In this document: positions 791 to 17,552 of the stretch, one piece after another
Layout of the letters: the number at the start of each line of letters is the position of its first letter
How positions within the stretch are numbered: the first letter of the stretch is position 1
Assembly: GCA_027339965.1 (NCBI GenBank)
Contig: DAHWNL010000021.1
Coordinates: 34,047-98,046 of the forward strand
Origin: Granulicella sp.
GTDB lineage: Bacteria > Acidobacteriota > Terriglobia > Terriglobales > Acidobacteriaceae
Direction of reading: 5' to 3'
Length of the DNA: 64,000 nt
Made by a program: the position numbers and the translations under genes
The notes under the pieces: model-generated
Database searches by the model: none
Seen by the model: only the letters and a program-made list of their open reading frames with translations
What the model was told of the DNA's origin: nothing

Positions 791-1079
791 CACGCTCCTG
801 TGGGCTTCCAGAGCCGTTGCCTGGGATGGGCCGTCCCAAGCGGGTAGGTTCAAGGCGTCATTCCAGAGGAAGGCGCCCGGGGAGGTAAGGCTCGGCCATA
901 CGCGGCGAGGAAGACTGCTTTCTATAGAGATGCTCTCACCGGACACGCTCGGGGGCAAATCGGCTGGCTGGAGTTGGAGGCGAACGGTGGCGTCTGAGAT
1001 AAGCCAGAAGGCGGCGGGCTGACGGGGTCCGGAACGGAGGCTGCCGTGGGGCAGCTATTCCGATTCCTCACGAGGGTGT

Positions 1080-1880
1080 TCAGCGAGTTCGGCGTGGCGG
1101 AACAAGCTTGATCTGGAAGATGGTGGGCCACTCCTTGCCGGTGACGAAAAGGCGATCGTGCTGGGGATCGTAGGCGATGCCGTTCAGAACGGCCTCGGCG
1201 TCCAGCCGTTCCACCGAGGGAAGGATGCCGGTGAGGTCGATCCAGGAGAGGACGCGGCCGTTGCTGGGAGAGATGCGGGCGATGCGGTTGCTGTGCCAGA
1301 CGTTGGCGTAGATCTGGCCGTGAATGTACTCCAGCTCATTCAATTCGGTTACGGGCTCTCCCTGGTCGGTGACCAGCAGGCTGCGGACGGTGTGGAAGTC
1401 TCTGGGGTCGCGGAAGCGCAGGGTGGCCGAACCATCGGAGGTGATGATGTTAGTTGCATCGCGGGTCATGCCCCATCCTTCGCCGCTGTAGTGAAAGGTG
1501 GCGATCCGGCGCAGGGTGGCGCGGTTGTAAACGAAACCAATGTGCGACTGCCAGGTCCACTCATACAGGTTTGGGCCCCAGTTGATGATGCCTTCTCCGA
1601 AGTACTCCGGGGGAAGCTCAACATGCTGCAGGACGCGCCCGGTAGCCGGGTCTGTCACCAGCACCTGGGAGTGTCCCTTGAGCCCGGTGCCCTCATAGAA
1701 CTTGCCGTTGAGATAGAAGAAGCCCTCCGTGTAGGAGGAGGTGGAGTGAGGAAAGGTGGCGACAACGGTGTAGCCATAGACGGGGGTGGGGCTCTGGGCC
1801 TTGCTGCAGGCGGTAGCCAATGAGACAGGAAGCAGAAGGAAAGAGACCAGCAGAAGGTTGGCGAGCGGGGTACGACGCAT
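1080..1880 (-). CDS. Glutaminyl-peptide cyclotransferase (type I glutaminyl cyclase), probable lipoprotein
   Basis: Motifs YTEG, FGEG, LTW-like EWTWQ, EGWG, LNELE, IYANVW and VLNGIAY; lipobox-like LATAC; start at MRRTPLA. Confidence 0.92.
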   Translation of the reverse strand: MRRTPLANLLLVSFLLLPVSLATACSKAQSPTPVYGYTVVATFPHSTSSYTEGFFYLNGKFYEGTGLKGHSQVLVTDPATGRVLQHVELPPEYFGEGIINWGPNLYEWTWQSHIGFVYNRATLRRIATFHYSGEGWGMTRDATNIITSDGSATLRFRDPRDFHTVRSLLVTDQGEPVTELNELEYIHGQIYANVWHSNRIARISPSNGRVLSWIDLTGILPSVERLDAEAVLNGIAYDPQHDRLFVTGKEWPTIFQIKLVPPRRTR

Positions 1881-2091
1881 GATCTCAAGGATAACCTGTG
1901 CCCTCCGCAGCACGCAGGAGCCCTGGAGAAGCAGCCCGAGGGCGCAGGATCGCACGCGAATCCAACCCTTGCCGGATGCTGGGCACGGGCCAGCCGCGGG
2001 CGTCCTGATAGAAAGACGCCCATGGCGGCAGGGCCGTCGTGTGCTCGCCGTGGGGCGCGTGCTCGGCACCGAGGGCGGCTCAGCAAGAGCC

Positions 2092-2799
2092 CTAGTGACC
2101 GGTAGCCGGCGCGGCGCTGCGCAATGTTGCCAGGATCGCTTCCGCTGTGTCGGCGGGCGTTCGTTTCTCGGTTTCGATGCAGTGCGTGGCGATGCGCTGG
2201 TAATGAGGGTGGCGGTGGTGAAAGCGGCGCTCGGCCAGATTGAGGTCGGCGAGATTGGGGCGGGCTGTGGCGGAGGGGTCCGCGGCCTGCGCCGCGCAAC
2301 GGGCGACGAGAATCTCAAAGGAAGCAGAGAGATAGATCACGACGGTGTGGGGCGTCTGTTCCAGCAGCAGACGGTTGCCGAGCTCTTCGGGAGCTCCGCC
2401 GCCCAGGGCGATTACCACCTGCCGCTGGCCGAGCAAGGAGGCCAGGGCCGCGGACTCGAGATGGCGGAAGTGGGCCTCGCCGTCTTCGGAGAAGATCTGC
2501 GGGACGGACCGGTGCTGGCGCATTTCAATCTCGTGGTCGAGATCCAGGAACCGCCAGCCCAGATGCTCAGCCAGCAGCCTGCCGGTCGAAGTTTTGCCGG
2601 ATCCCATAAAGCCTGTGAGAACGATGCGGTCGATGCCGCGCAGGGTTTGGATGGCAGAGTCCGGGTGAGGTGGAAGACTACATGGGGTGGGGCCTTCGGC
2701 CCGGGAGCGATCGGATGGAGTGGGTTTGCCGAGGCTGGAGTCTTTGGGCATGGAGTGGGTGGCGGGGTGGGTAGGTTCGGTCAGGGTTGCTGTACTCAT
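2092..2799 (-). CDS. aroK: Shikimate kinase
   Basis: IVLTGFMGSGKTS P-loop, FLDLD, GEAHFR, ALGGG; low-complexity N-terminal extension. Confidence 0.93.
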   Translation of the reverse strand: MSTATLTEPTHPATHSMPKDSSLGKPTPSDRSRAEGPTPCSLPPHPDSAIQTLRGIDRIVLTGFMGSGKTSTGRLLAEHLGWRFLDLDHEIEMRQHRSVPQIFSEDGEAHFRHLESAALASLLGQRQVVIALGGGAPEELGNRLLLEQTPHTVVIYLSASFEILVARCAAQAADPSATARPNLADLNLAERRFHHRHPHYQRIATHCIETEKRTPADTAEAILATLRSAAPATGH

Positions 2800-2847
2800 T
2801 TTCGTCTCCGGAGTTGCTTGCAGGGGAAGCAAAGTTGGTTTTGCTGC

Positions 2848-2878
2848 AAAAGAAAACCGCAGACCCTGTGGGCTGCGG
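2848..2878 (-). terminator. Intrinsic (attenuator) terminator between the leader peptide and aroK
   Basis: Minus strand CCGCAGCCC-ACA-GGGTCTGCGG followed by TTTTCTTTT. Confidence 0.8.
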
Positions 2879-2909
2879 CTCGGTGACTAGCTGTTGATCT
2901 CTGGGTGAA

Positions 2910-2993
2910 TCAGGAAATCTCACAACGCCGCCGGGCCGCTGGTGGATACCAGTAGCAGTAGCTAAATCGGCCGGTGGTGGGGCTGAAGCTCAT
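2910..2993 (-). CDS. Putative aromatic-amino-acid leader peptide (27 aa, MSFSPTTGRFSYCYWYPPAARRRCEIS)
   Basis: Short ORF with an F-S-Y-C-Y-W-Y cluster, lying between a promoter and a terminator upstream of aroK. Confidence 0.75.
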   Translation of the reverse strand: MSFSPTTGRFSYCYWYPPAARRRCEIS

Positions 2994-3001
2994 TGTGCAT
3001 G

Positions 3002-3030
3002 ATGCTAGCGCAAAGCCGGAGATGTGGCAA
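3002..3030 (-). promoter_or_regulatory. sigma70-type promoter for the leader and aroK
   Basis: TTGCCA-17 nt-TAGCAT on the minus strand; the leader ATG lies 8 nt downstream of the -10. Confidence 0.65.
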
Positions 3031-3047
3031 GTGCGCCGGCCACCGTG

Positions 3048-3150
3048 TGTTCGTAGCAAGTGAAAATGTCCGGTTTTCTTAGCACATGAAGTGTCCGGTT
3101 TTGTTTTCTGAACCCGCCGCCGTGTCGTTAGCACATGAAATGTCCGGTGG
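3048..3150 (+). mobile_element. Orphan IS terminal region (IS1202/ISNCY- or IS21-like) with three repeated sub-motifs
   Basis: Starts with TGT; TAGCAAGTGAAAATGTCCGGT (3054-3074), TAGCACATGAAGTGTCCGGT (3080-3099), TAGCACATGAAATGTCCGGT (3129-3148); no transposase follows. Confidence 0.55.
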
Positions 3151-3435
3151 AAACAGGAAGGGTGAGGGCTCATCACCCGCCGGGCAAATCCTCGCCCTGG
3201 TCCACCGGCTTCCATGCCCACGGCCGGAGTTCACGAGGCAGGCGGGGATGCCCGGGGCCCAAAACCAGAGGCGGGAGGTTGAGAGGCCGGTCGCGCGGAG
3301 CCTACGTACCGATGGCGGTCCGGCAGCACTTTTTGAGAGAGTGCATGCCGGGGCGGGTGGTCAGCAGTCTCTGGTCCCGTACCTTGTCCTCCCAGCTCTT
3401 TTGCCAAAGAGAAGACGGAACCCTGGAATTCAGGC

Positions 3436-3948
3436 TTATCCCACTTTCTGGGCCTCAGGGGACATCTTGCAGTTTTGCGCATGCGCATGCGCTTCTTGTA
3501 TCTGTTTCGATGGCCACTCGATCTTTCCTGGAGTGTAGCTTGCGTCGCGGACTGCATCCCGCAACAGTTCATCTGTTACATAGGCCCCAGGCTTGAGCGT
3601 CAGAATTGCTTCTCCCCGCCTCAGGTTGAACTGAACGCTGGCCACCCCAGGAACGGTCTTCAGACGGTGAATGATGCCGAAGGAGGTGAACGGGATGGCT
3701 ACGCCGAAAACCTGAACCTTGACAACGCCGCCCATGGCCATTGCCTGAGGTTGCCGGAGCGTTGCAGCGCTGGATTTTGACGCAGAAGCATTCGACACGG
3801 GCACATAGGCACAGCCGGCTTCCGGCGTGGCCGCTCTGCGCGGCTTCGCGTAGGCTGTGGCGCAGGCTGAGAATGCGGTTACGACAAGCAGGGCTGTAGC
3901 ATAGGCAGTAGACTTCCTTGCCGCGGTGAGACTCACTACAAAAGACAT
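3436..3948 (-). CDS. Exported heavy-metal-associated (HMA)-fold protein lacking the CxxC motif
   Basis: Signal peptide, then KVQVFGVAIPFTSFGIIHRLKTVPGVASVQFNLRRGEA...LRDAVRDASYTP, which follows the HMA pattern. Confidence 0.65.
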   Translation of the reverse strand: MSFVVSLTAARKSTAYATALLVVTAFSACATAYAKPRRAATPEAGCAYVPVSNASASKSSAATLRQPQAMAMGGVVKVQVFGVAIPFTSFGIIHRLKTVPGVASVQFNLRRGEAILTLKPGAYVTDELLRDAVRDASYTPGKIEWPSKQIQEAHAHAQNCKMSPEAQKVG

Positions 3949-4021
3949 CCAAGCACCTCGCTTCTTGAATTGTGACTCCAAACTCTCTCGAACCTGTGCG
4001 CAGTGGGATAACATCTTCGGC

Positions 4022-5083
4022 TCATAGATGGTGTCGGGTGAACCAGACATGGCGATAGACCAAAAGCACCCCCATGTTGCGCTCAGAGCCCCCCGCCGGT
4101 ACGCTCTGGTAACCGGGGACCTCCGCAACCACGGCAAAGCCCCAGTTTTTTCCAACGAAGCGGATACCTGGATCGAACTGCAGCAAGGTGCTTCCTGTGC
4201 TCACGACCGGATTCATGCCCACAAGGCCATCGCCCTGCATGGGGTTGAATGTGTCCTGATACAGCGGTTCCAAATCCGGATCTTCTGGCCGCAGGCTCCG
4301 TTCTTGGGGCTCCGGCGCGGAGACCAAGGCTGAGGAGCCGGAGGACGAGGAGAGGGAGGGGGACTCAGAGTCCTTCTCGCTGACGATGAAGTTGGTCTCG
4401 AGCAAGAGGTACGTCTCCACGTTCGGAACTCCGGTGTCTCCCAATTTTGGAGCGATCCGACGCTGCAAGCTGTCATCGGCGAAATATTCGTTGCCGATAT
4501 GGTATCCACCTGACACGGTGTGGTGAACAAATCCGCCATAGCCGTCAATTTCAGCATTCAACGTCTGCCGGGTAAAGATGAGTCCGTTCTTCGTCGCCCA
4601 GGCCCCGGAGCCCGGCTGTAGGACTTCGGGAAGGCGGCCGTAGGCGTTGGAGTCGTTATGTGGACCCACCGGAATCAGAGCCCCAGCGATCGCCGATAGC
4701 CGATTGGTGGTGCCAATTCCATCCTGCTCCCAAAACGTATACCTAGGCAGAAAACTGATGTCGCCAGGGCCCCAACTGTGCTCTACATGATAGACAGGGG
4801 TCGGCGAGCCGATCTGGTTATATTGAAAGGGCGTCTCCTCAACAATGAAGGTGATTTTGCTGCTCAGTCCGTACAAGCCTACCGTCTCCGCGATGGCTTC
4901 CCGCCGCAGATCGGTTCCGGTAAGAATGAAAGGCTGTATGCGGAAGACCATATCTCCGGCTGAGATGGGAGACGCCGCGGGAAAAGTCATAGGAGCAGCC
5001 CAGACTTCAGGAGCCGCGCAGGTAGACAAAAGAATGAAGAGGAACAAAACCAAAAAGAGCATTTGTGGCTGAACTCCAGTCAA
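4022..5083 (-). CDS. Putative outer-membrane beta-barrel ('transporter'/MetA-pathway-like) protein
   Basis: Signal peptide, GPGDISFLPRY, LIPVG, LQPGSGAW, amphipathic beta-strands and an aromatic C-terminal strand. Confidence 0.55.
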   Translation of the reverse strand: MTGVQPQMLFLVLFLFILLSTCAAPEVWAAPMTFPAASPISAGDMVFRIQPFILTGTDLRREAIAETVGLYGLSSKITFIVEETPFQYNQIGSPTPVYHVEHSWGPGDISFLPRYTFWEQDGIGTTNRLSAIAGALIPVGPHNDSNAYGRLPEVLQPGSGAWATKNGLIFTRQTLNAEIDGYGGFVHHTVSGGYHIGNEYFADDSLQRRIAPKLGDTGVPNVETYLLLETNFIVSEKDSESPSLSSSSGSSALVSAPEPQERSLRPEDPDLEPLYQDTFNPMQGDGLVGMNPVVSTGSTLLQFDPGIRFVGKNWGFAVVAEVPGYQSVPAGGSERNMGVLLVYRHVWFTRHHL

Positions 5084-5236: not shown

Positions 5237-6142
5237 TCAAAGCCAATCTTCGTTCCGGGCAACGGCGGGTGAAAAGGACGAGCGACGGGACGTTGAGAGA
5301 TTGGCCTTCCCTTCGCAATTGAGCGGTTCGGCCGTTGGGCTGGAGGCGCCGGCGTTTGGCGCGGCTTGCAACAAGGCCGTGCTGCCGGCGTAGAGCTTGA
5401 CGGTGAAGTACTTTGAGTCAAGCTCCACAGTTCCGCGGTTGTTTCTACCAGTGTGCGTGAGCGATGTCATATCAAAGCCATAAAGGCCACAGGCGCTGCC
5501 GGCGTAAATGCCGACGGACTGCACCGTCGCGGTTCCATTGCAGCGCAGGAGAGCATGCCCGCTGATAGTTTCTGCCGACCGTAATCGTTCGAAGACTCCG
5601 TTTCTGAAGTCTTTGCCCACAACGTCCATTCCTTCATCTTCTGAGACCGAGGAGTAGACGTTTTGGCTGGAGTTCAATATCTGATCTCCACCAATCAGCA
5701 CACGCTCATTCGATAAGTCCATATACGTAGGAGTTATTGGATAGCTGGCTTCGGACGTCTCCATGGAACCCGCGAGCGCCCGGACGTACAGCCGGGAAGC
5801 GATCACTCCTTGACGGGTGACAATGTCATCAAGCCGGAACTCTAGCACCGACGCGCTAACGCCCGGGCGTACCGGCTGTGCCTTGACCACATGGCCCAGA
5901 ACATAGGATCCCTTGGGTAGATCGTGGCCGTGGCCAAGGTAAACCACCTGCATCGTCCTGGCCTCGATCAAATCGCCCACCTTGGCTTTGTCGGCCCTGA
6001 TAGCGTGCACGAATTCTATCGGGATGGCAGTGTCGGGGGGCAGTTTCCAGTCAAGCGTGCTGGTTGTTGCGCCGGCCCTTGCGCCGAACAGAGCCGTCGA
6101 GGCTATCACCAGTTCCAGGAATCTTGTTGCGCACTTCGTCAT
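5237..6142 (-). CDS. Exported hypothetical protein (LPxxTxIxxxL...AKVGD, VirB10/TrbI-like N-terminus)
   Basis: Signal peptide, LPPDTAIPIEF...KAKVGDLIEART, LPKGSYVLGHV; RBS GGAG upstream. Confidence 0.6.
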   Translation of the reverse strand: MTKCATRFLELVIASTALFGARAGATTSTLDWKLPPDTAIPIEFVHAIRADKAKVGDLIEARTMQVVYLGHGHDLPKGSYVLGHVVKAQPVRPGVSASVLEFRLDDIVTRQGVIASRLYVRALAGSMETSEASYPITPTYMDLSNERVLIGGDQILNSSQNVYSSVSEDEGMDVVGKDFRNGVFERLRSAETISGHALLRCNGTATVQSVGIYAGSACGLYGFDMTSLTHTGRNNRGTVELDSKYFTVKLYAGSTALLQAAPNAGASSPTAEPLNCEGKANLSTSRRSSFSPAVARNEDWL

Positions 6143-6289: not shown

Positions 6290-6973
6290 ATGCGGTTGTT
6301 GATCGTCGAAGATGAGGAAAAGCTTGCAGCCATCGTCGCCCAGGGGCTAGAACAACAAGGCTTTGTTGCGGAGGTTGTGCCCAACGGCGATGAGGCGGCG
6401 GCGCGGCTTGAAAGACAAGCCTATTCGTTGGTGTTGCTCGATCTTATGCTGCCCCGAAGGAGCGGAATTGAATTGTTACGTTGGCTCCGCGAAAGAGGCG
6501 AGACCTGCCCCGTGTTGATACTCACCTCTCGCGATGGAGTGGAAGATCGCGTCCGGGGTTTGGATGCGGGAGCGGACGATTATCTCGTAAAGCCTTTTGC
6601 ATTGTCCGAGCTGCTAGCCCGCGTTCGAGCGCTGTTGCGGCGCTCGGAGCAAAGGCTGCCCGTGCGGGCGGAGGTAGCGGACCTTCGTCTTGACCTCCAG
6701 ACGCGCCGAGCGTTTCGGGGAATCAAAGAGCTGGCGTTGACGCCGCGGGAGTTTGAGCTGCTCGAATATCTTCTTCAGCATAGCCCGGCTGTGGTCTCCC
6801 GTGAGATGCTGGCGCGAGATGTCTGGAGAGAGACATCGCGATTTACTCCAATCCACAACGTAATCGATGTGCAAATTGCGCGCTTGAGGCGGAAGGTAGA
6901 CGACCCCTTTGATCGTCGTCTCTTGCAGACGGTGCGCGGCGTCGGGTTCGCTCTGCGAGAGGAGATAGAGTGA
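6290..6973 (+). CDS. OmpR-family (CusR/CzcR-like) response regulator
   Basis: LLIVEDE, LLDLMLP, GADDYLVKPF, LTPREFELL, VIDVQIARLRRK, QTVRGVGF. Confidence 0.95.
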   Translation: MRLLIVEDEEKLAAIVAQGLEQQGFVAEVVPNGDEAAARLERQAYSLVLLDLMLPRRSGIELLRWLRERGETCPVLILTSRDGVEDRVRGLDAGADDYLVKPFALSELLARVRALLRRSEQRLPVRAEVADLRLDLQTRRAFRGIKELALTPREFELLEYLLQHSPAVVSREMLARDVWRETSRFTPIHNVIDVQIARLRRKVDDPFDRRLLQTVRGVGFALREEIE

Positions 6974-8415
6974 TTCAAAGAGCGATTCTTGGACCGGCCC
7001 GTCTGCGAACCCGGCTGACCCTTTGGTACACCTCCGTCTTCGGCGCGATTCTGCTGGTCTTCATCGCCGTGGCCACCTTGCTGCTACGGTGGCAGCTCTT
7101 CTCGGAGCTGCTTCGCTATGAGGTTCAGGACATGGAGACCGCCGAAGGATTGCTCTATTTCACTCCCACCGGCGCGCTTACCATCGACGAAAGGTATCAC
7201 AACAGCCTGCAAGGCGAGATGCGAGTGCATCGGCTGTTGCAGGTCACGACCCCCGAGGGGCGCATTCTCTTTCGCAATCCGCGGCTCGCCGGCCTTCCGT
7301 TAGGCGGAGCGCCCTTTCCGCGCGAGGGGCTCCACGTCTACGATCCGCGCACCATTCGCCTTGCCAATGGCGTGCCTGTGCTGCTCATCAGTCACATGCA
7401 CTCCATCAACGGCAGGCCGTTGCTGATTCGCATCGGCTACAGTCTGCTCCCGGTGGAGGAGCAGGTCCGCAGGTCGCGGGACATCCTTGTACTGGCGTTC
7501 TTTCCCACCCTGCTGCTGGCGGGCGTTGGGATCTACCGGCTAACGCTCAAGGCGCTGCTGCCGTTGGAGAAGATGGCGACGGCGGCAGAGCAAATTACCG
7601 CGGATCAACTAAGCCGGCGGCTGGCGGTAGAGAATCCCAGTGATGAACTGGGGCACATGGCCCGTGTCCTGAATGGATTGCTGGCGCGCCTGGAGGCTTC
7701 CTTTGAGCAGCTCAAGCGTTTCACCGCGGACGCTTCCCATGAGTTGCGCACGCCGCTGGCCTGCTTGCGAGCCGCGGGCGAGGTAGCGCTGGAGAAGCAT
7801 CGCAGCCCGGAGGAGTATCGCGAGACGGTCGGAAGCATGCTGGAAGAGGTGATGCGGCTAACGCACCTGGTAGACCGGCTGCTGCTGATCTCTCGAGCGG
7901 ACGCCGGCCAGATTCCGTTGAACAAAACCACCTTCTGTTGGATGGATCTGGCGCAGGAGGCCGTAGCGCTCGTTGGAGTTCTGGCCGACGAGAGGCGGCA
8001 GAGGATAGACATCTCCGGCGATCCCTCCATCCAGGTATATGCTGACCGGTATGTCCTCCGGCATGCCATGCTCAACCTGCTGGAGAACGCGGTGAAGTAC
8101 TCTCCGGAGGGGTCTCCGATTGCTCTACACCTGAGCCGATGCGCAGATCGAATGGCGGAGTTTTCAGTCATCGATCAAGGACCGGGGGTTCCCGAGGAGG
8201 ATCGCGAGAGGATCTTCGATCGCTTCTTCCGCAGCGATCCAGGGCGGGCGCGAGATGCGGGCGGGGATGGGCTGGGCCTGGCGATTGCCAGATGGGCTGT
8301 GGGCGCGAATGGCGGCAGGCTCGGTTTAACCGCCATGGAGACGCGGGGCAGCCGTTTCTTTATTCAGTTACCCACCCACGACGCATCGCCTGACGCTGGG
8401 ATGGCAGGGGGCTGA
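6970..8415 (+). CDS. HAMP-domain sensor histidine kinase (CusS-like)
   Basis: Two TM segments, HAMP, FTADASHELRTPL, NLLENAVKYS, DQGPG, GLGLAIA; GTGA overlap with the regulator. Confidence 0.95.
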   Translation: MIQRAILGPARLRTRLTLWYTSVFGAILLVFIAVATLLLRWQLFSELLRYEVQDMETAEGLLYFTPTGALTIDERYHNSLQGEMRVHRLLQVTTPEGRILFRNPRLAGLPLGGAPFPREGLHVYDPRTIRLANGVPVLLISHMHSINGRPLLIRIGYSLLPVEEQVRRSRDILVLAFFPTLLLAGVGIYRLTLKALLPLEKMATAAEQITADQLSRRLAVENPSDELGHMARVLNGLLARLEASFEQLKRFTADASHELRTPLACLRAAGEVALEKHRSPEEYRETVGSMLEEVMRLTHLVDRLLLISRADAGQIPLNKTTFCWMDLAQEAVALVGVLADERRQRIDISGDPSIQVYADRYVLRHAMLNLLENAVKYSPEGSPIALHLSRCADRMAEFSVIDQGPGVPEEDRERIFDRFFRSDPGRARDAGGDGLGLAIARWAVGANGGRLGLTAMETRGSRFFIQLPTHDASPDAGMAGG

Positions 8416-16706: not shown

Positions 16707-17552
16707 TTACAGGCTGCCCAGGGAAAAGTAGTCCCGCAGAGCGATGATGAACCAGAGAACCGGCGCTGCGACCAGGAGGGCATCGATGCGGTCCAGCACG
16801 CCGCCGTGGCCAGGGAGCATGGAGCCGGAGTCCTTGACTCCGGCTCCCCGCTTAAGGGCTGACTCGAGCAGGTCGCCGAACTGGGCGGCTGCGTTGAGCA
16901 GCACGGCGAGCAGGAGGAAGATCCACCAGCGTTCTGTGGTGTGAAGCCGGGTAAAGCTGGAGTTCTGTTGGGTGAGCCAATCCCCCAGCAGAACCAGGCC
17001 CATGCCGAAGAGGCAGGAGGCCGTCAGCGAGGCGATGGCGCCCTCCCATGTCTTGTTGGGCGAGAGGCGGGGCGCAAATTTGTGGCTACCAAAGCGTCTG
17101 CCGACATAGAGCGCGGCGACATCCCCTGACCACACACAGAGAAAGAGGAAGAGCAGCAGCGCGGTGCCGTTCTCTTGATTGAGAATCTCCGGCAGAAGAG
17201 CCAGAGGATAGGCGATATAGATCACCAGAAGGAGGCCTGCGGAGGTTTGCCAAAGGACATGCTCCAATTTGGTGCGGAATGCCGCAACCGCGAAGAGCAC
17301 CAGGGTAAGGAAGGCCACCACCGTGAGCCTGTCGGAAGGGTGGAAGAAGACGCAGAGGAAATAACAGGCTACGGCACAGAGAGACCACCAGAGCGGTATG
17401 GGGCATCCGCCGGCGGCAGCGAAGGTTCGGAACTCTGAAGCGGCCAAGCCGGCGACGATGGCCGCCAGGAGGGTGACCATCCATAGCTTGCCAAAGAAGA
17501 TCAGCGCCAGGACACAGGCAATGAGGACAACAGCGGTGAGGATGCGCTTCAT
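16707..17552 (-). CDS. cdsA: Phosphatidate cytidylyltransferase
   Basis: SPNKTWEG, GDLLESALKRGAGVKDSG, PGHGGVLDRID. Confidence 0.96.
   Translation of the reverse strand: MKRILTAVVLIACVLALIFFGKLWMVTLLAAIVAGLAASEFRTFAAAGGCPIPLWWSLCAVACYFLCVFFHPSDRLTVVAFLTLVLFAVAAFRTKLEHVLWQTSAGLLLVIYIAYPLALLPEILNQENGTALLLFLFLCVWSGDVAALYVGRRFGSHKFAPRLSPNKTWEGAIASLTASCLFGMGLVLLGDWLTQQNSSFTRLHTTERWWIFLLLAVLLNAAAQFGDLLESALKRGAGVKDSGSMLPGHGGVLDRIDALLVAAPVLWFIIALRDYFSLGSL

Follow-up and report, generated by a model that had tools for sequence, protein, structure and literature searches.

In the enterobacterial trpL and pheL attenuators, four RNA segments can pair as a protector (1:2), an antiterminator (2:3) or a terminator with a U-tract (3:4); their leader ORFs hold runs of codons for a single amino acid, are initiated from a Shine-Dalgarno sequence and control terminal branches of the pathway. 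The aroL gene is under TyrR/TrpR control. In E. coli, TyrR and TrpR act on the aromatic genes together with the pheA and trpE attenuators (PMC11878033). The closest precedent for the locus described here is the aroR-aroF attenuator of Corynebacterium glutamicum (Neshat et al. 2014; PMC11802643, PMC4046766), where stalling raises transcription; aroR encodes Phe-Tyr-Phe without Trp, responds to Phe only and precedes a DAHP synthase gene. A predicted uORF and terminator also precede aroF in the Acholeplasma uORFC-13-1 motif, which has Phe only, a ribosome-binding site and 24 representatives in another phylum (PMC8632094). Leaderless leader peptides are likewise described in Actinobacteria: the transcripts of Streptomyces trpL1, leuL and ilvL start at the leader AUG or beside it (PMC8079986), and mycobacterial poly-Cys short ORFs are of the same kind (bioRxiv 10.1101/834739). 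These belong to another phylum, with other codons and other targets, none of them aroK in the available part of PMC8079986.

For Acidobacteria, predictions for three genomes put the share of leaderless genes at 9.7-19.4% (PMC3160421). In the parts available, Acidobacteria are missing from a list of attenuators proposed near tyrA (PMC1173090), hardly any of the attenuators predicted in the phylum had been given a function by 2010 (PMC2965389), and acidobacterial leader genes are treated by spacing only (PMC4833913). The initial annotation of the present locus knew of no attenuator described for aroK in this phylum, and the literature within our reach, subscription papers lying beyond it, agrees: no leader peptide attenuating aroK, or any other gene of Acidobacteria, turned up there.

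Here, we describe a leader ORF with control codons, like those of trpL and pheL (PMC11802643, PMC11878033), ahead of the shikimate kinase gene of a Granulicella species. It resembles C. glutamicum aroR-aroF in being a short mixed-aromatic leader ORF before a common shikimate-pathway enzyme, and differs from it in keeping Phe, Tyr and Trp, in its target, and in belonging to a family whose other members stand before trpB, DAHP synthase and chorismate mutase genes. Unlike trpL and pheL, its segment 2 lies within the ORF, 55-80 nt from segment 3, and it has no Rfam match. At the level of sequence, the leader displays every feature of the trpL/pheL class, and we consider it very probable that the element is a leaderless, ribosome-mediated transcription attenuator responding to aromatic amino acids.

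A predicted leaderless attenuator upstream of aroK

The window, that is, the whole 64,000-nt stretch analysed, comes from Granulicella sp. GCA_027339965.1 (contig DAHWNL010000021.1, positions 34,047-98,046 of the forward strand), and the leader and aroK lie on its minus strand. A putative sigma70-type promoter (3002-3030) consists of a -35 box TTGCCA (3030-3025), a 17-nt spacer and a -10 box TAGCAT (3007-3002). It is the sole promoter-like site in 2000-4200; since shuffled sequences give 0.5 +/- 0.6 such sites, the match alone is weak evidence. The leader ATG follows at 2993, so close (8 nt past the -10 box) that a Shine-Dalgarno sequence has no room before it. With the transcription start predicted from the promoter position at 2996-2993, the 27-residue leader ORF (2910-2993; peptide MSFSPTTGRFSYCYWYPPAARRRCEIS) would be leaderless or nearly so. 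Its control codons (2946-2966) read Phe-Ser-Tyr-Cys-Tyr-Trp-Tyr. Five aromatic codons in seven make it unique among the 34 short ORFs of its genome that stand behind a TTG-N19-21-TAnnnT promoter pattern, the runners-up having three in seven. Two other starts were considered and rejected. The ATG at 3000, which opens a 12-residue frame, stands a single nucleotide past the -10 box and has no counterpart in a close relative; a 103-residue in-frame extension from GTG 3221 crosses the promoter and is missing in a relative where an anti-sigma gene ends just upstream.

Downstream of the control codons, segment 2, the predicted 5' arm of the antiterminator (GCGGCCCGG, 2939-2931), is complementary at 8/9 positions to segment 3 (CCGAGCCGC, 2883-2875). 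Segment 3 and the 5' arm of an intrinsic terminator overlap, so that both structures share it. The terminator (2848-2881) is a bulged GC hairpin with a predicted stability of about -17 to -19 kcal/mol and a U-tract, TTTTCTTTT, at 2856-2848; the bulge is the reason why a terminator scanner did not list it. Two candidate protectors lie upstream of segment 2: arm 1a (CCACCGGCCG, 2968-2977), its predicted partner in the nascent RNA of the window's sub-lineage, and a codon hairpin (1b, 2939-2958), in which the Tyr, Cys, Tyr and Trp codons pair towards the GCGG segment and which is weakened here and dominant in the family at large. The U-tract ends 48 nt before the ATG (2799) of aroK (2092-2799, 235 residues), the gene that would be regulated. 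Its product matches Pfam SKI at E 9.5e-41, and its best NCBIfam matches are shikimate kinases, yet under the curated cut-offs; it is the single shikimate kinase match in the genome. The promoter with its closely following ATG, the aromatic ORF, the hairpin about 50 nt before the gene, the 8/9 pairing and the identity of aroK had all been proposed in the initial annotation, and can be read directly or, for the gene product, from its Pfam match. Because the terminator ends about 40 nt upstream of the aroK Shine-Dalgarno sequence (GGAG, 2809-2806), it cannot mask that sequence, which rules out a translational mode of action by masking.

The surroundings of the locus vary. A glutamine cyclotransferase gene (1080-1928, PF05096) lies downstream of aroK and is possibly co-transcribed with it; it follows aroK in 4 of the 40 leader-bearing loci where the end of aroK was located, most of the others having a membrane protein gene. 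Just upstream of the promoter, at 3048-3160, there are imperfect tandem repeats (CCGGACA..TCATGTGCTAA), akin to an insertion-sequence end; similar stretches occur upstream of aroK in two relatives (L100, L122) and on contig C50 of the same genome. Three runs of the same study, compared with 1000-4000, gave a single contig piece, at 3048-3103 within the repeat, and none over the leader or aroK, a result uninformative on expression. In other relatives (L128, for instance) the aroK promoter comes after an ECF sigma/anti-sigma pair, which in the Granulicella genome is on contig C10; since this neighbour differs between genomes, promoter, leader and aroK have moved together. Three ORFs upstream of aroK (3436-3948, 4022-5083 and 5237-6142) have no Pfam or NCBIfam match, one of them resembling a heavy-metal-binding domain by eye, and beyond them, on the plus strand at 6290-8415, lie a response regulator and a sensor kinase named from their translations.

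From this arrangement we infer stalling at the control codons, termination ahead of aroK and the amino acids that would act on both. RNA polymerase would start at the AUG at 2993 or 1-3 nt earlier, and a ribosome would load on this AUG without a Shine-Dalgarno sequence. Given an ample supply of Phe-, Tyr- and Trp-tRNA, the ribosome would cross segment 2 to the stop at 2910; with segment 2 occupied, the 2:3 pairing would not form, the terminator would, and the transcript would end near 2848, before aroK. An untranslated leader would lead to termination likewise, the protector holding segment 2. A ribosome stalled between Phe10 and Trp15, on the other hand, would cover the protector arm and leave segment 2 free to pair with segment 3, blocking the terminator and allowing aroK to be transcribed.

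Distribution and targets of the leader family

A search pattern derived from the first six loci gave 34 matches in 29 of 401 genomes of the family, against 2 for the reversed pattern; 28 of the 30 pattern loci that were read have a leader ORF, and two lie inside genes. A scan of GTDB returned at least 119 matches; among those listed, 115 of 119 precede trpB (56), aroK (43) or a DAHP synthase gene (16), 77 of 80 titled records are Acidobacteriota, and the carriers include the cultured genera Terriglobus, Edaphobacter, Tunturiibacter, Granulicella and Bryocella. Terriglobus albidus DSM 26559 has the element ahead of aroK, Bryocella elongata DSM 22489 and Tunturiibacter ahead of trpB. With a cut-off of E 0.01, a covariance model found matches in 67 of the 150 family genomes searched. 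We inspected 70 model matches. At 34 bits or more, 46 of 50 precede a gene for DAHP synthase, chorismate mutase, trpB or aroK, the exceptions being two without a readable gene, one without an identified gene and one unrelated terminator; below 34 bits 3 of 20 are real, GCCGC/GCGGC terminators accounting for most of these weaker matches (16 of 20). Outside the family, a phylum-wide model search gave two real elements among ten matches, both before chorismate mutase genes, the others being unrelated terminators. Rfam holds no counterpart: in the window at 2500-3500, no family, Trp_leader and Phe_leader included, was found at E up to 5 beyond three chance matches, and six related loci gave none.

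The Granulicella genome itself contains exactly two copies according to the model. Besides the aroK leader, a copy on contig C54 (24713-31726) heads trpB, trpA and genes for chorismate mutase, DAHP synthase (aroF), proB, proA and prephenate dehydrogenase (tyrA), all but trpB named from their translations; proB and proA appear to have been inserted into the aromatic cluster. No such leader lies within 450 nt of trpE, aroB, aroC or the two EPSP-synthase-family genes of this genome. A search for TrpR (PF01371) and T-boxes (RF00230) in the same genome, which is 98.9% complete, gave no match, with positive controls. The proposal that the leader controls aroK is supported, with a refinement: the leader does head aroK, but it is not specific to this gene, the same family heading trpB, DAHP synthase and chorismate mutase genes. 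A different short ORF, on the minus strand of contig C66 from position 17080, is leaderless, Cys-rich and followed by a terminator before a nitrite/sulfite reductase gene; such ORFs carry two to three Cys codons in this genome and six in another (L251, genome G072), and probably represent a cysteine-sensing attenuator in Acidobacteriaceae.

To see the leader independently of the pattern, a motif-free sample was formed of loci picked by aroK alone and then inspected. In a sister genus, 24 of 24 loci have, ahead of aroK, a short ORF that is placed by a promoter and holds an aromatic cluster (25 were obtained, one unpublished genome being left out), as do 17 of the 30 best-scoring loci of Granulicella, 13 lacking it; it was found at none of five loci of another family. 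Phe and Trp codons occur in all 41 of these leaders and Tyr codons in 40; three whose terminators a filter had missed do have them. Among the best 30 aroK loci from 151 family genomes, six, belonging to six genera and including the window, have the leader and 24 do not. The conservation anticipated by the initial annotation thus extends over a clade of Acidobacteriaceae; besides the uORF with its aromatic codons, it takes in both the antiterminator segment and the terminator. In a midpoint-rooted tree of 65 aroK proteins (rows under 150 residues or without a readable P-loop region left out), the 38 with a leader stand on one side of a branch (support 97/91) and the 27 without it on the other, which fits one recruitment of the leader to aroK; the aroK of four leaderless-locus genomes of the same genus, those in which this element is absent, falls outside the leader-bearing group. 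The aroK copy hence looks like a single recruitment, drawn from the leaders that stand before DAHP synthase and chorismate mutase genes and trpB operons elsewhere. Three further observations were made during this comparison. A contig titled Gammaproteobacteria (L118) carries a leader-bearing aroK nested among Granulicella-like sequences, which is mis-binning or transfer. In a same-genus genome without the leader (L253), a TTGCCA(A)C unit is repeated five times in tandem directly before aroK, at about 1475-1515. In genome G593 of the same genus (L310), for which contamination is given as 5%, aroK matches twice, on separate contigs and with similar scores.

RNA structure and the amino acids sensed

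In all, 178 distinct element sequences were collected, and their reading frame is under selection, an indirect sign of translation. For 148 of them, a promoter (TT[GCT]-N19-21-TAnnnT, closely followed by a start codon) defines a start, which shares the frame of the aromatic codons in 145 cases, where about one third would be expected. The start sits 7-10 nt past the -10 box in 128 of the 148 and 54 or 57 nt from segment 2 in 118, and many members of the family have predicted leaders of 1-4 nt. The 30 elements without a close promoter are mostly leaders of DAHP synthase and chorismate mutase genes, so these two groups may not be leaderless. Segment 2, for its part, is kept as RNA: depending on the member, its frame gives Ala-Ala, Ser-Gly or Gln-Arg, and at four Granulicella loci a 1-nt deletion after the last Tyr alters the C-terminal peptide and leaves segment 2 intact.

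Three lines of evidence bear on the folding. Firstly, in 31 aligned sequences compensatory changes affect 5 of 11 terminator pairs and 1 of 10 pairs of the codon hairpin, at a Tyr wobble position (5 of 31 sequences). The two helices together have 22 compensatory cells against 5.4 in shuffles, with none of 500 shuffles as high, a contrast inflated by kinship, since the members are related and the counts are not independent. The antiterminator extension stays within the shuffle range (62 of 500 shuffles for compensatory cells), and the invariance of the 5-bp antiterminator core was in part imposed by the search pattern; the persistence of segment 2 through shifts of frame is the stronger evidence here. 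RNAalifold recovered the terminator and three pairs only of the codon hairpin. The covarying helices that the initial annotation called for are hence present in the terminator and, at one pair, in the codon hairpin, but not significantly so in the antiterminator extension. Secondly, segment 2 pairs upstream in the nascent RNA with a mean probability of 0.945, compared with 0.68 in synonymous variants, and does so more than its variants in 174 of 178 elements. In the nascent RNA of the Granulicella genome the favoured partner of the GCGG segment is CCACCGGCCG (P about 1.0 at 66-110 nt), as first suggested; the window's sub-lineage combines this upstream segment with a small codon hairpin, and about 20 of 54 aroK leaders have a partner 30-45 nt upstream. 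The suggestion does not carry over to the family, most members of which use the control codons themselves, (Arg/Cys)-Tyr-Trp, as the protector arm.

Thirdly, the antiterminator was predicted in all six first loci, and we followed its mean probability with a ribosome modelled as a 15-nt block from the P site under equilibrium folding. Without a ribosome the value is 0.39; an A site at codon -12 raises it to 0.65 and one between codon -9 (the conserved Phe) and codon -4 (Trp) to 0.90-0.92, before it falls to 0.08 or less from codon -3 on; the 3' edge of this stalling window follows from the footprint chosen, and the 5' edge is set by the sequences. Because the high-antiterminator zone spans the conserved Phe to the Trp, a ribosome held up at Phe, Tyr or Trp should let transcription continue. 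In the Granulicella genome, equilibrium folding without a ribosome already prefers the antiterminator at 125-130 nt, so the off state would depend on a translating ribosome or on the order of folding. Once the transcript is complete, the terminator is favoured even when a ribosome has stalled. The alternative folds proposed at the outset are both predicted; the outcome would be kinetic, as in other attenuators, and the folding calculations are suggestive only.

The codons follow the consensus F-x-[FY]-[RC]-Y-W. The full set of Phe, Tyr and Trp is present in 54 of 54 aroK leaders, 62 of 69 trpB leaders, 30 of 45 type-Ibeta DAHP synthase leaders and 1 of 8 chorismate mutase leaders; the search pattern forced Tyr-Trp in most aroK and trpB cases, so the motif-free count of 41 aroK leaders is the fair one. 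Although the pattern makes no demand for it, a Phe stands nine codons upstream of segment 2 in 46 of 54 aroK and 60 of 69 trpB leaders. Codon choice is equally marked. For the conserved Phe, 103 of 106 leaders use UUU, against a genome preference for UUC, and the Arg of Arg-Phe pairs is CGA in 89 of 109, compared with about 10% genome-wide, where CGC is preferred; slow decoding, a role at the RNA level or common descent may underlie these choices. Cysteine sensing by the aromatic leader was considered and rejected: Cys alternates with Arg or Ser and is encoded throughout by UGC, which is the codon able to pair with segment 2; this makes it a structural by-product.

On this basis we lean, by a small measure, towards all three of Phe, Tyr and Trp acting as inputs. 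The same attenuator could instead respond to one or two of them, to Trp at the critical last position or to Phe, the Tyr and Arg/Cys codons being kept as the protector hairpin and UUU perhaps as RNA; this is a serious contender, although we hold it somewhat less likely true than false. In C. glutamicum, the Phe-Tyr-Phe leader aroR answers to Phe and not to Tyr (PMC11802643); the Tyr and Arg/Cys codons of the present family do pair with segment 2; Phe replaces Tyr before Trp in several aroK leaders, Trp being present in 41 of 41; and the near-uniform UUU and CGA point to a constraint on nucleotides. Against such a restriction, substitutions remain aromatic for aromatic, many leaders have extra Phe or Tyr codons outside the paired region, and the six positions from Phe to Trp all lie inside the predicted stalling window. 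The chorismate mutase leaders, moreover, have Phe and Tyr without Trp in 7 of 8 cases and keep the architecture, so that Phe and Tyr codons alone seem to suffice.

Codon content that tracks the controlled branch in this manner, together with identified targets that are all aromatic-pathway genes, also makes it improbable that the leader senses mainly translation speed or the modification of tRNAs for U-starting codons. Such tRNAs undergo MiaA/MiaB-type modification, whose effects are a known side input of ordinary trp and phe attenuators and as such no alternative to them. What speaks for this explanation is that the Phe, Tyr, Cys and Trp codons all begin with U, that the slow codons UUU and CGA are strongly favoured, and that MiaA is reportedly tied to trp attenuation (PMC13434334).

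Still less probable, and to our minds very unlikely, is that the ORF is incidental and the RNA a switch that binds a protein or small molecule, or else a premature terminator that acts constitutively. GCUAYUGG, GCGGC and CGAUUU are indeed conserved at the nucleotide level, and translation of the leader is predicted from its sequence; an incidental ORF would nevertheless leave unexplained the 145 of 148 starts in frame, the synonymous UAC/UAU exchange that comes with compensation and the aromatic-for-aromatic substitutions, and no Rfam family matches. A chance arrangement of motifs in GC-rich DNA, which the near-chance promoter match and the abundance of GCCGC/GCGGC terminators behind most weak model matches might suggest, can be dismissed in view of the 34 pattern matches against 2, the near-exclusive linkage to aromatic genes, the in-frame starts and the leaders conserved at aroK-anchored loci.

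A possible aromatic regulon in Acidobacteriaceae

The attenuator with three inputs can be placed in a wider scenario, which we offer tentatively and rate just short of an even chance: an aromatic regulon of Acidobacteriaceae that operates without TrpR or T-boxes, through copies of a leaderless attenuator acting as an OR-gate for Phe, Tyr and Trp, duplicated, recruited once onto shikimate kinase, with codons retuned for each target and CGA-UUU, an invariable pair of slow codons, serving for timing. If true, it would amount to a sensor with three inputs, portable and about 150 nt long, and to an RNA counterpart of the repressor control exerted at the DAHP synthase and shikimate kinase steps.

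The mechanism of attenuation itself is textbook; what is unusual is the target, the codon set for three amino acids and the regulon-like spread. Within the literature reached, this would be the first leader-peptide attenuator on a shikimate kinase gene, and its 178 distinct sequences make a new RNA family for Rfam. The Corynebacterium precedent integrated one amino acid only; here, the same cassette stands before different genes with different codon sets in cultured genera, a natural series on which the integration of three amino acids may be studied. For an abundant soil phylum, the leader family thus offers a concrete and testable regulatory mechanism.
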